From an uncultured Eubacterium sp. (GTDB lineage Bacteria; Bacillota; Clostridia; Lachnospirales; Lachnospiraceae), in the NCBI GenBank assembly GCA_910585745.1, contig CAJUFM010000003.1, positions 1 through 64,000 on the forward strand: DNA of 64,000 nt. Reading direction: 5' to 3'. This document shows, piece by piece, positions 54,505-58,897 of this stretch. Each line of letters opens with the position of its first letter. Within the stretch, counting starts at the first letter, position 1. Under the pieces are notes generated by a model that worked only from the letters and a program-made list of their open reading frames with translations, made no database searches and was not told where the DNA came from. Position numbers and translations under genes: made by a program.

Positions 54505-55458
54505 ATGGAGAACGAGATGAAAAAAGTAATTAGCATAATGATACCCACCTTTAATGAAGAAGAAAATGTGATACCGATTACAGAGGCGGTGATCGATGAA
54601 ATCACGACAAACCTGCCTCAGTATGATTATGAGATATTATTTATCGATAATGATTCTACGGACTCGACAAGAGAAAAGATCCGGCAGTTATGCAGCAGGG
54701 ACCAGAAGATCAAGGCAATATTTAACGTGAAAAACTTTGGGCAGTTTAACTCACCCTTTCATGGCCTTCTGGAGACGACAGGTGACTGCACGATTCTGCT
54801 TTGTGCCGATTTTCAGGACCCAATCCCGATGATTACGCAATTTGTGCATGAATGGGAAAAAGGTTATAAAATTGTGATCGGGATCAAATCCACAAGTAAA
54901 GAAAATAAGATTATGTATTTTCTTCGGAGTTGTTATTATAAACTGATCAAAAAGATGTCAAGTGTAGAACAGATTGAACATTTTACTGGATTTGGTTTAT
55001 ATGACAAGGATTTTATGAATGTTCTGCGGAGTCTGGATGAACCGATGCCATTTCTGCGGGGAATCGTAGCGGAGCTTGGATTTAAGCGGAAGGATATCGA
55101 ATACCAGCAGGAAAAACGGCGTGCGGGTAAAACTCATAATAACTGGTATAGTTTATATGATGCGGCGATGCTCAGTTTTACTTCTTACACTAAGGTTGGA
55201 ATGCGGATTGCTACAATTCTGGGTTTCATTTTGTCAGGGATCAGCATTGCAGTGGCCTTTGTTTACCTGATCATGAAACTTCTTTTCTGGGACAGGTTTG
55301 TGGCGGGGATGGCGCCAATCCTGCTGGGGATTTTCATCTTTGGTTCAATCCAGTTGTTTTTTATTGGGCTGCTGGGAGAGTATATCATGAGTATTAACTC
55401 CAGAGTGACACGAAGGCCTCTTGTTGTTGAAGAGGAACGGATTAATTTTGATAAATAG
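54505..55458 (+). CDS. GT2 polyprenyl-phosphate sugar synthase (GtrB-like) with two C-terminal TM helices
   Basis: IPTFNEEENV...FIDNDSTDST...NFGQFNSPFHGL...CADFQDP plus C-terminal TM pair. Confidence 0.75.
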   Translation: MENEMKKVISIMIPTFNEEENVIPITEAVIDEITTNLPQYDYEILFIDNDSTDSTREKIRQLCSRDQKIKAIFNVKNFGQFNSPFHGLLETTGDCTILLCADFQDPIPMITQFVHEWEKGYKIVIGIKSTSKENKIMYFLRSCYYKLIKKMSSVEQIEHFTGFGLYDKDFMNVLRSLDEPMPFLRGIVAELGFKRKDIEYQQEKRRAGKTHNNWYSLYDAAMLSFTSYTKVGMRIATILGFILSGISIAVAFVYLIMKLLFWDRFVAGMAPILLGIFIFGSIQLFFIGLLGEYIMSINSRVTRRPLVVEEERINFDK

Positions 55459-55472
55459 ACGGGAGCTGTATT

Positions 55473-57638
55473 ATGAAAAATAAAAATAGAACATACAGTA
55501 TTTATCTGGGAATTGGGGCGGCGATTGGTCTGGTGCTGTTCCTTATTGTATATGGATTTCGTGTGTTGGATTTTACCAATGACACGTGGCTGTTAACGGG
55601 AAAGGATCTGCAGCAGCATTACTTGGGATGGAAATTTTTCCGGCAGGCGCCGTGGTCTTTTCCGCTTGGGATGCATGATTCTTTTACGGCTCCGGACTCC
55701 ATTAGTGTTTTATACACCGATTCTATTCCGCTGTTTGCGCTGTTTTTCAAACTACTTTCGCCTGTTTTGCCAGAGACATTTCAGTATTTTGGATTGTTTG
55801 GCCTGTTATGTTATATTTTAAATGGGGCGATGGCGTCCCTCATTGTATCCCACTTTAATAAAAGCAAGGTTTTTTGCGGTATTTCCAGCGTATTTTTTAT
55901 ACTTTCGACGCCGGTTTTGCAAAGACTGTTTGGGGTGTTGTCTGAAAATTCGAGGCATACATCCTTGGCGGCGCATTTTCTTATTCTGGGAGCACTGGCA
56001 ATCTGGTTGTTTAAGGATGTCTTTGAGGATTATAGGAAGGATGCATTGGCCTGGGCAGTTCTTGCCGCGCTGTGTGTCCTGATTCAGATGTATATTATTT
56101 TTATGGTGGGGGGTATCATGTGTGGATACCTTCTGGATGAACTGATTTCCCAAAAGGACTGGAAGCGACTGCTGTATGATTTTTCCAGTTTTGCCTTGAG
56201 TTTTTGTTTCTTTTTCTTTATCATTGGCGGATTTACGAGTCTGCTTGCGTCGGGCGGATCAGGATATGGATTTTTCTCGGCCAACCTCAATACATTTATT
56301 AACCCGTGGAGATATTCTACCTTTTTCAATAAGATGGGAATGACGGATCTGCAGTATGAAGGATTTGCATATCTGGGATTGGGGATGATTGTGCTTTGTG
56401 GTATCGCGTGCGCTGCTATTCTGGTCAAGGCAGTTTCCCTGTTCCGGAAAGGGCAGTTAAGAGAAACTTTAAAAGTAAAAAAGCAAAGGAATTTTTCCTT
56501 TGTCGTTTCCCTGGTTGTCGTAGTTTTTGTGTTTATGGTACTGGCTTTTTCAAATCTGGTTTATATAGGACACAGAATTTTTATCGAAGTCCACTGGCCG
56601 ACAGTGATCGATAATCTTCTGGCGGTGATCCGTTCGTCAGGGCGTTTTATCTGGTGTGTGATGTATATCGTTATGATACTGGGGCTTTATATCATAACAA
56701 AGATGTTTAATAAAAAGGTGCAGTTAGCAGTTGTGATCTTTTGCGTATGTCTGCAGCTAGCGGATCTGTATACTCCGATCCACAGACTTCAGAAGCAGTA
56801 TTATGGTGAGGCAAAGGAGGAAGAATCTCTTGTTCAGAACGATTTCTGGAGGATCTCGCTGGGCAGCTACGATAAGATCGCATATTTCCCAACGGATGGG
56901 TACGACGCAACGCAGATGCTGCAGATCGCTTCTAAAATATCAAAATTTGAAAATGTGAAGATGAGTAATTTTTATCTTTCCAGATACATGACAAAGAAAG
57001 TTATGCGGCAGAAGGATAAGATCATAGAAAAGGATTTCAAACAGGGCACATTAGATGACAGAACATTGTATATTCTTGATTATGCCAATGCCCATAAATA
57101 TAAAGATATGTGTTATATGTATATTGTTGATAATAAAATACTTGCTGTAAAAAATCCTATAGTTGGATTGGAGAAATATACAGATTTTCTTGTGGGATCT
57201 CTTACACCGCTTGTGGAATTGGATATGTCATTTGCCGGTCTTGGAAAGAGCTTTCTGCACAAAGGGTGGAACGGCCAGCAGTTGGGAGATAAAGGGGCAT
57301 GGACAACATGGGAAAGCGTTGTCCGGATATACTCCGAAGATGCGAAGAGAGCGAAAATCACCATTGAGTATCAAGGCGGCAAAAAGAAGGGCACAACGAC
57401 AGTAAAAATGAATGGAAGAAGGATTGGGAAGATCAACAATAAGGAATCTGGTACTGTGACCTTTGAAACGAAGCTAAAACTGTGTGAGAATATTAAGAAA
57501 ACAAAATATATCAACTGGCTCTTTTTTACATCTGGTGATGTGAAAAAGGCAAGTAAAGCGGGAGAAAAAGATGGAAAAGGTGTTATGATAAAAAAAATTA
57601 CGCTCTCTTACCTTCCGGAAGAGAATGTAAGCGAGTGA
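55473..57638 (+). CDS. Large polytopic membrane protein with ~230-aa C-terminal domain; putative GT-C glycosyltransferase
   Basis: ~13 TM helices then a soluble C-terminus; directly follows the GtrB-like gene. Confidence 0.5.
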   Translation: MKNKNRTYSIYLGIGAAIGLVLFLIVYGFRVLDFTNDTWLLTGKDLQQHYLGWKFFRQAPWSFPLGMHDSFTAPDSISVLYTDSIPLFALFFKLLSPVLPETFQYFGLFGLLCYILNGAMASLIVSHFNKSKVFCGISSVFFILSTPVLQRLFGVLSENSRHTSLAAHFLILGALAIWLFKDVFEDYRKDALAWAVLAALCVLIQMYIIFMVGGIMCGYLLDELISQKDWKRLLYDFSSFALSFCFFFFIIGGFTSLLASGGSGYGFFSANLNTFINPWRYSTFFNKMGMTDLQYEGFAYLGLGMIVLCGIACAAILVKAVSLFRKGQLRETLKVKKQRNFSFVVSLVVVVFVFMVLAFSNLVYIGHRIFIEVHWPTVIDNLLAVIRSSGRFIWCVMYIVMILGLYIITKMFNKKVQLAVVIFCVCLQLADLYTPIHRLQKQYYGEAKEEESLVQNDFWRISLGSYDKIAYFPTDGYDATQMLQIASKISKFENVKMSNFYLSRYMTKKVMRQKDKIIEKDFKQGTLDDRTLYILDYANAHKYKDMCYMYIVDNKILAVKNPIVGLEKYTDFLVGSLTPLVELDMSFAGLGKSFLHKGWNGQQLGDKGAWTTWESVVRIYSEDAKRAKITIEYQGGKKKGTTTVKMNGRRIGKINNKESGTVTFETKLKLCENIKKTKYINWLFFTSGDVKKASKAGEKDGKGVMIKKITLSYLPEENVSE

Positions 57639-58098
57639 TCTGTAAAGCAGGAAAGGCAGATCTTATGCAGACCAAAAAGTGGATCCGGATCTTTTCCTTT
57701 TCTTTCCAATATTTTCTTCTGATCCCGGAACTGATAACAGCAGTGGGAGTGTTTGTCACTGGGCTGGCAGGAGAAAAGGCTGGGGGAAGAAAATCCGGTT
57801 TTTTTGAGGAGATATTTGTAGCGCTTTCCTCTGTCCTTAATTTCAGTATAGTGCCCACGCGGTATGTATTTTCAGAAGTATTTCTTTAAGCCGGAGGTTC
57901 ATGTGTTTTCCCAACACGACGAGGGATCCTTGGAAAAGATTACTAGATACAAAAAGATTATCTGTTTCATGTAAAACAGCCGGTTACCGGGAAAACGAAG
58001 TAACTTCTTTCCGGATATGAGAAGACAGGGGAAAACGTATTACAACGTATGGACAGTATTTCGAATAGACAGATCAAGAACGAAAAGGGTGAAGGAAA

Positions 58099-58650
58099 AT
58101 GGATAAAATAAGTGAAAAACTCTGGAATTTAATTGAAACGGTCGCAAGGGCAATTTTCGGACTGGTATTTAAAATCTGTAAGGTAGAACCTACGGAAGAA
58201 CAGTGGGATTCCCTAATGCAGTTTGTAAAATTTGGACTCGTCGGAGTATGGAATACCGTTTTTTCCTATGCGATCACGGTAATCTGCCTTTTGAGTTTTA
58301 AGAGATCCGGGACTCTGCAGTTTGAGGTCTTTGCAACACCTGTCTCAGTCTACGTGTCAAATGTTATCGCGTTTATGATAAGTGTTTTTGTATCCTTTTT
58401 ATTGAATAATAAGTTTGTGTTTACTCTGCAAAAGGGACAAAGCAGAAGTTTTGGGAAGGCGTTATGTAAGAGTTATCTCTCTTATGGCTTTACTGGAATT
58501 ATTCTGAATAATATCCTTGCTTTTGTGTGGGTTGGGCTTTGTGGGATTCCTGAGCTAATCGCTCCGTTGATCAGTCTTGTTATTGCCATTCCGATAAACT
58601 TTTTCATGAATAAACTATGGGCCTTTAAGTCGGGCGATACACAAGGGTAA
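58099..58650 (+). CDS. GtrA-family protein (flippase candidate)
   Basis: 4 TM helices, NNKFVFT and NKLWAFK GtrA-type motifs. Confidence 0.65.
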   Translation: MDKISEKLWNLIETVARAIFGLVFKICKVEPTEEQWDSLMQFVKFGLVGVWNTVFSYAITVICLLSFKRSGTLQFEVFATPVSVYVSNVIAFMISVFVSFLLNNKFVFTLQKGQSRSFGKALCKSYLSYGFTGIILNNILAFVWVGLCGIPELIAPLISLVIAIPINFFMNKLWAFKSGDTQG

Positions 58651-58710
58651 AGAGAAAGAATAGGGAGAAAGCCTAGAAAAACCTTTTCAAACGAACCAAT
58701 GTGTGGTAAA

Positions 58711-58867
58711 ATGAACGCATAAGCACGAACGCACCGTCTCTTGGAGACAGCCTTCTGCTTGCAGGAAAGGCTGTCTCCAAGAGACGGTATGTGAGTGCAA
58801 CGAACACTAAGCTCCTTCGGGGTGCCGAAGGAGCTTAGTGAGTGCTTATGCGAGCAAGCATAAGAGC
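58711..58867 (+). promoter_or_regulatory. Structured leader/intergenic RNA element with two perfect hairpins and mutually exclusive outer pairings, upstream of the DPM1-like GT2/man gene set
   Basis: Hairpin 1 at 58734-58787 (19-bp perfect stem CCGTCTCTTGGAGACAGCC/GGCTGTCTCCAAGAGACGG). Hairpin 2 at 58806-58839 (15-bp stem ACTAAGCTCCTTCGG/CCGAAGGAGCTTAGT). GTGCTTATGC (58842-58851) can pair either with upstream GCATAAGCAC (58717-58726) or with downstream GCATAAG (58858-58864). Confidence 0.4.
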
Positions 58868-58897
58868 AAACTGTAGAATAACTTTGGAGGGAAAATC

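Follow-up and report, generated by a model that had tools for sequence, protein, structure and literature searches.

We analyzed the intergenic region at 58651-58897 of a 64,000-nt stretch of DNA (the window) from an uncultured Eubacterium sp. of the Lachnospiraceae. This region lies between a gene of the GtrA family (58099-58650) and a gene for a family-2 glycosyltransferase (GT2; 58898-59605), and it contains one copy of a family of repeated, structured RNA elements. The GT2 gene begins with the ATG at 58898 on the + strand, with the ribosome binding site (RBS) GGAGGG at 58886-58891, and according to the list of open reading frames (ORFs) and Pfam, it is the first gene of GT2-manA-manC-gmd; in this long operon, gmd is followed by an epimerase. 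A consensus scan of the + strand found a candidate promoter at 58684-58712, which includes the -35-like hexamer TTTTCA (58684-58689), a 17-nt spacer, and the extended -10 box TGGTAAAAT (58704-58712), and which probably functions as the resident promoter. An earlier note on this DNA, which was prepared from the sequence, described the region as an attenuator-like or riboswitch-like leader or, alternatively, as a small repeat.

The core element (58713-58851 on the + strand; 139 nt, as matched at full length by the covariance model R1) is predicted to fold as a three-way junction, with an outer helix (P1) and two hairpins (HP1 and HP2). P1 has 11 base pairs, between CGCATAAGCAC (58716-58726) and GTGCTTATGCG (58842-58852). 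The P1 5' strand, GCATAAGCAC (58717-58726), contains the predicted transcript start; its partner, the P1 3' strand, GTGCTTATGC (58842-58851), is preceded by the GTGAG box Y2 (58838-58842). The 5' strand leads into box X1, GAACGC (58727-58732), a CGAAC box that is invariant in A2/A3, and then into HP1 (58733-58788), where a perfect stem of 22 bp is accompanied by a 1x3 internal loop and is topped by the apex CUGC-UU-GCAG (a CUUG tetraloop). This apex, CTGCTTGCAG, is at 58755-58764, and the arms of HP1 reach 32 nt at 88% complementarity. The junction motif J2/3, TATGTGAGTGCAACGAACA (58788-58806), contains the GUGAG box Y1 and the CGAAC box X2. HP2 (58805-58840) has a 16-bp perfect stem and a GGTG loop; in other subtypes, HP2 is shorter and has tandem G.A pairs. 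Box X1 can pair with either GUGAG box via tandem G.A pairs, and in L030, L096, and L100 it is swapped for CUCAC, which gives full Watson-Crick pairing. These features are all on the + strand.

After P1, there is a short tail, AGCAAGCATAAG (58853-58864, + strand), which repeats the P1 5' strand in part and represents a decayed "mini-module." Within this tail, GCATAAG (58858-58864) could form a 7-bp hairpin with CTTATGC (58845-58851) in competition with P1. In the alternative conformer, HP1 would also be extended by pairing of GCAC (58723-58726) with GUGC (58795-58798). The computed energies for the window copy are -96.1 kcal/mol with P1 closed and -99.5 kcal/mol with the HP1 extension and the tail hairpin, so by this model, the competition between the conformers is thermodynamically real. 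The pairing of the RBS region is predicted to be identical in both. What the earlier note reported about the fold is borne out: it had described two perfect hairpins, which are where it placed them, and a segment that can pair both upstream, enclosing the two hairpins, and downstream, with GCATAAG, which correspond to the 11-bp P1 and the 7-bp alternative. Some of its details need correction: the perfect stems are 22 and 16 bp, not 19 and 15 bp, and GCATAAG is 22 nt upstream of the RBS (34 nt upstream of the ATG), not about 35 nt. It had also stated that the hairpins lack a T-tract, and indeed there is no + strand terminator in 58000-59700.

The stability of this fold is far beyond chance: the z-score relative to dinucleotide shuffles is -10.4 for the + strand and -11.9 for the - strand. 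Only three inverted repeats in the entire 64 kb reach 14 nt or more, and HP1 and HP2 are two of them. Searches with the arms of the element did not find other copies within the window. We also considered a small ORF at 58711 (ATG AAC GCA TAA) and rejected it, as it lacks an RBS and overlaps with the -10 box.

We identified relatives of the element with two scans. First, we searched one genome per species with a gapped 20-nt pattern that comprised only the two P1 strands. This gave 49 loci, of which about 34 are clearly the same element; the other 15 or so, from Proteobacteria, Planctomycetes, Nocardia, Lentilactobacillus, and others, were discarded as chance matches to the pattern. The hosts of the true copies are metagenome-assembled genomes (MAGs) of Lachnospiraceae that are labelled as Roseburia, Eubacterium, Lachnoclostridium, or Jutongia, with at least 3 to 5 copies per MAG on separate contigs, and there are further copies in gut metagenomes. 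Second, we probed metagenomes with the junction motif, which gave 47 further loci and recovered types B and C of the element. A caveat is that the pattern of the first scan fixed P1, and that of the second fixed J2/3. R1 was trained on 23 copies, excluding the window's subtype, and has 130 positions. R1 matched the window copy (58713-58851, + strand) across all of positions 1 to 130 with 112.6 bits (E = 2e-28); on the antisense strand of this copy, it scored only 31 bits, and it found no second copy in the 64 kb. Across all of the loci that we fetched, R1 identified about 85 full-length copies in the sense orientation and many partial modules.

The true copies share a layout: an extended -10 box, GAAC, the P1 5' strand, GAACGCA, the long hairpin, TATGTGAGTnnAACGAACA, the second hairpin, GTGAG, and the P1 3' strand. 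The sequence of the long hairpin differs from copy to copy, while its length and its apex (CUGCUUGCAG) are constant. The strands of P1 are GCATGAACGC and GCGTTCATGC in type B and CGAATAGCACGAACGC and GCGTTCGTGCTATTCG in type C; the register of P1 differs among types A, B, and C; and single variants of P1 (in L063, L096, and L100) are still complementary. Where the window has its tail, the orthologous leaders hold 3 to 5 mini-hairpin modules (AAGCAC-GNNN-GTGCTTATGC).

At some loci, subtypes 1 and 2 of hairpin 1 alternate by species: this occurs upstream of mscL (L010/L046 versus L031/L034), an RND pump (L027 versus L035/L043), methionine aminopeptidase (MetAP; L097 versus L038/L090), and an MKTFL protein (L044 versus L007/L014/L051). 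The -10 hexamer stays specific to the locus. The alternation indicates that internal modules are probably exchanged between copies (gene conversion). Another recurrent module, AAUAAGUyC-UGAC-GrACUUAUU and then AACAAGU, is found 30 to 80 nt past the core in L026, L027, L035, L042, L043, and L051, which are leaders of aroB, RND pumps, and small membrane proteins.

The copies show covariation in all three helices. RNAalifold recovered P1, HP1, and HP2 from 31 distinct copies, and 21 of the 42 predicted pairs had compensatory double changes. In the 23 copies that do not belong to the window's subtype, 97.2% of cells were paired, compared to 87.6% after shuffling, and sliding the partner by 1 to 3 columns reduced the pairing to 24 to 50%. 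None of 500 shuffles reached the observed values. Among seven orthologous GT2 leaders (the window and six other species), which are 98% identical, nearly every substitution in a stem is compensated. For instance, the HP1 pair 24/73 occurs as all four Watson-Crick types (G-C, U-A, C-G, and A-U), and HP2 in the ortholog L054 has a compensatory change from AA/TT to GT/AC. P1, which we tested separately on the loci from the junction-motif scan, covaries between types A, B, and C and in the single variants. In the 31 copies that P1 alone recovered, the junction motif itself varies at only 2 positions. Among 76 unique full-length copies, 3,026 cells are Watson-Crick, 166 are G-U, and 24 are A-C, although these cells are not independent events, as there are few subtypes of hairpin 1 and they have been swapped between loci. 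Because the G-U cells far exceed the A-C cells, the sense strand, on which the downstream gene also lies, is the form that is selected and folded. These comparisons of sequences show that selection acts on the RNA fold itself. The earlier note had named two findings that would refute its reading, namely multiple near-identical copies across the genome, as for a repeat element, or a lack of conserved pairing in related loci: instead, the copies differ, with compensatory changes and a bias towards G-U over A-C, and the pairing is conserved in related loci.

The element is consistently at the very start of a putative mRNA. TGnTAnnnT is found 80 to 85 nt upstream of the junction motif in 63 of 86 arrays; upstream of the -10 box, nonorthologous loci have no sequence in common. 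In type A, the P1 5' strand begins 5 nt past the -10 hexamer, and in type B, it begins 9 nt past it; there is a conserved A at +7. In the window, this A is at 58719, and the spacing from the -10 hexamer suggests that it is the transcription start site. The next gene is on the same strand as the element in all of the neighborhoods that were validated with Pfam. Because the core is followed by submodules in variable number, the start codon lies between about 22 and about 480 nt from the element.

About 20 functionally unrelated genes, many of them for housekeeping, follow copies of the element, and these sets of genes differ between genera. They include GT2, MscL, 3-dehydroquinate (DHQ) synthase (aroB), an AcrB-family pump, formate-tetrahydrofolate ligase (FTHFS or fhs), mini-RNase III, MetAP, an FtsA-like protein, ClpX, HprK, RsmH, YhbY, EamA, agmatine deiminase, and others.

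Comparison of closely related contigs suggests how the window copy arrived. Contigs that encode a protein 100% identical to GT2 have two haplotypes. One, in L003, is identical to the window. The other, in L001, L002, and L004 to L006, has a different upstream cassette and an intergenic region of just 78 nt (about 140 nt fewer), which retains the promoter-like TTTTCAAA-N17-TGGTAAAAT. More distant orthologues of GT2, at identities of 91% (L103, from a very abundant species), 83% (L104), and 78% (L105/L106, from Eubacterium xylanophilum), also have the promoter and a short leader with no element, and the arrangement TTTTCAAA...TGnTAnAnT is kept in these orthologous loci. As the element-free relatives have the same promoter, the promoter is older than the element. 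In the empty allele, TGGTAAAAT is followed directly by ATATATTTGAAG, and in the filled allele, by GAACGCATAAG; R1 does not match the empty alleles. The two alleles show that in this lineage the element was inserted into a preexisting promoter for GT2-manA-manC-gmd, exactly where the -10 hexamer ends and ahead of the former +1.

The genes of the upstream cassette also differ between the haplotypes (window 54505-58650 versus 1-2922 of L001, L002, and L004 to L006). The cassette of the window and L003 encodes a DUF6311 protein and a 183-aa GtrA protein, and the other encodes two unannotated proteins and a 177-aa GtrA protein. Given the identical GT2 and the different genes upstream, a recombination breakpoint of a variable surface-glycan cassette lies at the GT2 promoter.

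A second pair of filled and empty sites is at the 3' end of prfA. In Mediterraneibacter-like genomes, copies of type C lie at the prfA stop codon (L101 2424-2556, L069, L074, L081, L083, L085, and L095). The insertion deletes the last residue of release factor 1 (RF1) and turns the UAA that ends the RF1 gene into UAG, a stop codon decoded by RF1 itself. The syntenic empty site is at 2260-2300 of L110/L111, and the junction lies inside an 11/12-nt match of the native AAAATGAATGAA to the context that is usual on the left of the element, AAAATGAACGAA. We considered whether the element donated the C-terminal "MNE" of RF1, but this is refuted, as MNE is native in 120 homologues; the RF1 C-terminus KMNE is native. 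We did not see a direct repeat at the junctions of either pair, but as the flanks have diverged by about 25% or have been replaced in part, they could conceal a short duplication. From these junctions, the element evidently is gained or lost at the level of DNA, beside a -10-like sequence. The placement at -10 boxes may reflect targeting, recombination mediated by microhomology, or selection for a 5'-terminal P1.

The element is related to a known orphan motif. Clostridiales-1 (RF01699) is a very common four-stem motif of the gut with covariation, which was rated as not cis-regulatory and was not given a function (Weinberg et al. 2010, PMC2864571). Both the Clostridiales-1 RNAs and our element are from gut Clostridiales, have very high copy numbers and good covariation, and are orphans in function. 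In both, an outer helix surrounds two hairpins: a long one, whose apex is (GA)CUGCUUGCAG(GCAA) in the canonical alignment as in our family, and a last one, which contains a GA-rich internal loop. On the other hand, the window copy has three stems instead of four, with the junction motif UAUGUGAGUnnAACGAACA in place of the middle hairpin (CAUGAGnAUGAAGG..CCGGAAUnCGAAUG), which is absent from 58713-58864, and the three-stem variant is consistently located at the start of putative mRNAs, in contrast to the rating of the motif in 2010. The RF01699 model did not match the window copy at E <= 10 in 58000-59600, and it had no match above its gathering threshold (48 bits) in the whole window.

Relatives of the window copy link the two forms. 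The type B relative L075 matches the full RF01699 model at 29.2 bits, with the middle hairpin deleted (52 model positions skipped). L080 and L057 have matches above gathering (52 and 49.9 bits, respectively), inside tandem arrays that follow core elements, and another match in these two loci scored 44.8 bits. The array in L080 interleaves the junction, HP2, and P1' modules with the canonical middle (M) and last (H3) hairpins of Clostridiales-1. We therefore consider that the window element is, as judged from its sequence and its modules, a minimal three-stem variant of a modular superfamily that contains Clostridiales-1, even though it fails formal membership in RF01699. Such tandem arrays follow the core in L080 (6500-6990, - strand) and also in L057, L088, L071, and L076. 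Their unit of about 149 nt contains the junction motif, HP2, and P1' together with the canonical middle and last hairpins of Clostridiales-1, and each unit is preceded by a -10-like TTATTATAAT.

What does the element do? Together with the decayed tail, which ends at 58864, 58713-58851 is one copy of a structured RNA repeat that is modular and dispersed in gut Lachnospiraceae. Our preferred explanation, which we hold tentatively and at slightly less than even confidence, is that this repeat acts in cis as a 5'-terminal domain and alters the fate of the mRNA. The probable role of such a domain would be to affect the stability or processing of the mRNA. The element would be transcribed as the extreme 5' end of the GT2-manA-manC-gmd mRNA and would fold as a three-way junction, with P1 sequestering the 5' end of the RNA and two long hairpins, capped by tetraloops, branching from the conserved junction. 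In Firmicutes, 5'-terminal stems block the access of RNase J1 and RppH to mRNAs, and for this reason the 5' domain may protect against decay that depends on the 5' end (by RNase J, RNase Y, or RppH). HP1, at 22 to 25 bp, has the size of an RNase III substrate and may act as a double-strand processing site. Neither metabolite sensing nor the termination of transcription would be part of its action. At the DNA level, new copies would arise beside -10-like sequences, and modules would be gained, lost, or exchanged between copies through recombination.

Firmicutes have other 5'-terminal stabilizers of mRNAs: the ermC and aprE leaders and the STAB-SD of cryIIIA. They resemble our element in having a stable helix that is at most a few nucleotides from the 5' end of the RNA (predicted, in our case), an accessible RBS downstream, no ligand, and no terminator. 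In contrast to our element, they are found at single loci, they have no conserved junction, and they are neither repeated nor mobile.

The precedents for a co-transcribed repeat that alters expression are the BOX elements of pneumococci (PMC3049150) and the Correia repeat-enclosed elements (CREE) of Neisseria (PMC2649163). BOX elements (boxA-boxB(n)-boxC) have ends that hybridize in the RNA; they are co-transcribed with neighboring genes, are reported to stimulate or inhibit the expression of the downstream gene, and insert anew only slowly (PMC3049150). Like our element, they are composite, modular, intergenic repeats of a Firmicute with paired ends and variable numbers of internal tandem modules. 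However, they are from another taxon, we observed no sequence similarity, and they are not tied to a -10 box or to one orientation; the RNA covariation and strand bias that we see are outside the definition of BOX. CREE form a long hairpin in the transcript, which RNase III can cleave or can be blocked from cleaving, and they alter the expression of adjacent genes (PMC2649163). They are about 100 to 150 bp, lie between promoters and genes, have inverted ends, vary in presence between strains, and sit at or create the -10 of a promoter, much as our element has a -10 sequence at its junction. But CREE have a TA target duplication, sites for IHF, and both orientations, while our element has no duplication that we could find, a fixed orientation, and a three-way junction with a conserved core, and is from another phylum.

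Several observations weigh against a stabilizing 5' domain. A passive stabilizer does not explain the invariant nucleotides of the junction (UAUGUGAGUnnAACGAACA, GAACGCA, and GUGAG); the conserved apex and constant length of hairpin 1; the paired CGAAC and GUGAG boxes, with tandem G.A pairs or, in three variants, Watson-Crick pairs; or the type C copies at the prfA stop codon, which sit in a 3' UTR and not at a 5' end. Because of these four features, two alternatives, a selfish element and a platform for a factor in trans, keep substantial weight. In addition, the nearest-neighbor model prefers the alternative conformer of the window copy over P1 by 3.4 kcal/mol, and the putative transcript start is read from the -10 spacing. 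Finally, there is no + strand terminator between the upstream GtrA gene and the element, so transcripts that read through would hold the element internally.

The first alternative, which we consider to be less likely but a serious contender, is that the element is a selfish, nonautonomous mobile element, such as a transposable element of the miniature inverted-repeat type (MITE) or a BOX-like or Correia-like repeat, without a function for the host. Any effects on operons would then be incidental, and the fold would serve propagation, for example as an RNA or single-stranded intermediate that is recognized by a transposase or reverse transcriptase encoded elsewhere. The earlier note had raised a MITE or REP-like repeat, and in part this fits: the element is 139 nt, has 11-bp inverted terminal pairing, is multicopy (at least 3 to 5 per MAG, albeit one in the window's 64 kb), and is inserted relative to related loci, with presence/absence polymorphism both at the GT2 promoter and at the prfA 3' end. 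These two filled/empty pairs are independent; the genes that carry the element are completely different between genera; the number of tandem modules varies, and there are "mini" derivatives with internal deletions; subtypes of hairpin 1 have been swapped between orthologous loci; P1 resembles terminal inverted repeats; and the left junctions are at -10-like sequences, including a site that is not a promoter and has the 11/12-nt microhomology. But a mere repeat understates the selection at the RNA level. The element is always in the sense orientation relative to the downstream gene and nearly always at a -10 box, in the 63 arrays at a fixed distance, while random insertion of a MITE would vary both. 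It has been inherited stably at orthologous loci in at least 7 species, with compensatory substitutions, and the sequence of P1 differs between types, which is not expected for inverted repeats that are bound by a transposase. We saw no target-site duplication and identified no partner gene, although a partner insertion sequence was not searched for. Also, no copy was found in plasmids, in phages, or in viral contigs: blastn of the element against plasmids and phages gave only chance matches of 30 to 37 nt, and three scans of 2.9 million viral contigs (with an arm of hairpin 1, the junction motif, and the middle hairpin of Clostridiales-1) found nothing, so we rejected the idea that the element is borne by phages. 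Our search of the literature on MITEs or noncoding RNAs in Lachnospiraceae did not turn up anything relevant.

The second alternative is that the element is a binding platform for a global factor that acts in trans, or that it has RNA polymerase itself as its target, as in processive antitermination of the put or EAR type, so that about 10 operons per genome would be regulated together. This could account for the invariance of the junction motif, GAACGCA, and the GUGAG boxes while all three helices vary, and for the constant length of hairpin 1 and its apex CUGCUUGCAG; it also suits an element that is proximal to the promoter of a long operon, as in the window. Nevertheless, we think it improbable: there is no functional theme among the carrier genes, and the sets are not conserved between genera; some copies are in 3' UTRs; antitermination is not needed for single genes like mscL; and we did not identify a candidate factor. 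The conservation across types is also partly due to ascertainment, as the metagenome probe fixed the junction motif. A broader proposal, about which we are similarly doubtful, is that mobile cassettes with RNA structure integrate just 3' of -10-type hexamers, at the start point of transcription, possibly via the bubble of the open complex or microhomology between -10 and GAAC. This would give mRNAs a 5' three-way junction that is read by a global factor, and Clostridiales-1 would be the four-stem form of this promoter-targeting element.

A self-cleaving or catalytic RNA, that is, a tandemly repeated three-way junction that processes the 5' leader, seems very unlikely: although a conserved junction with freely varying capped helices, tandem G.A pairs, and multiple tandem copies is reminiscent of small ribozymes, no ribozyme family in Rfam 15 matched even at E <= 10, there is no recognizable core of a hammerhead, twister, pistol, or hatchet ribozyme, and when we looked by eye for the hammerhead core (CUGAnGA/GAAA), it was absent.

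Least likely of all, and largely refuted, is a switch or attenuator for the mannose/GDP-sugar operon that senses a metabolite or protein via the mutually exclusive pairings of GTGCTTATGC, as the earlier note had proposed for the GT2/manA/manC/gmd block: the window copy does have two nearly isoenergetic conformers in the 5' leader of an operon, but neither is tied to a terminator or to a helix that occludes the RBS, close relatives use the same promoter for this operon without the element, and the element also precedes mscL, aroB, fhs, clpX, hprK, and others. The alternative pairing depends on the tail, a decayed repeat module that is different in each ortholog, and it is therefore not a conserved switch. 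Rfam gave no riboswitch match, just microRNA-like chance matches below threshold (at E <= 10 for the region and at gathering for the whole window), and terminator-like sites downstream of the element were found in only 6 of 73 leaders of the family and were weak. The unrelated genes, the variable spacing, and the rarity of terminators exclude a dedicated riboswitch or attenuator and a conserved regulon, and with them the locus-specific regulator that the note had in mind.

We also rejected several other identities. A retron msr/msd has the short and long hairpins in the other order, and the element is multicopy and has no reverse transcriptase gene. IS110 bridge RNAs, IscB/TnpB guide RNAs, type III antitoxin repeats, CRISPR, and T-boxes were each rejected because of architecture and context. 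A K-turn was rejected because, despite the tandem G.A pairs, the 3-nt bulge is absent.

Although the window copy is ordinary for its family, it bears on a larger puzzle. Clostridiales-1 has been among the most abundant candidates for structured RNAs in the human gut since 2010, as an orphan in function, and it is now linked to a simpler three-stem variant. The natural filled and empty alleles of one promoter, together with the placement at the start, make this orphan motif approachable by experiment. Should the placement at -10 boxes be due to targeting and not to selection, it would represent an insertion specificity that is new for bacteria. The lesson for annotation is that when a leader is highly structured and has alternative pairings, it can be a repeat and not a riboswitch.

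We noted a few other features of the window and of the fetched loci. No tRNAs were found in the window. An otherwise tightly packed run of genes on the + strand is interrupted at 57890-58098: these roughly 210 nt, which separate a small ORF (57635-57889) from the GtrA gene, contain no listed ORF of 50 aa or more. The third long inverted repeat of the window, at 28427-28462, is an overlapping palindrome around TGACAATTGTCA between ORFs at 25684-28404 and 28570-29982, and it could be an operator-like site. Among the fetched loci, L060 has a subthreshold match to the PreQ1 riboswitch (2948-2996, - strand; 33 bits, with gathering at 39), and L057 has a clear ribosomal protein L10 leader (9475-9612, - strand; 83.7 bits); neither is related to the element.

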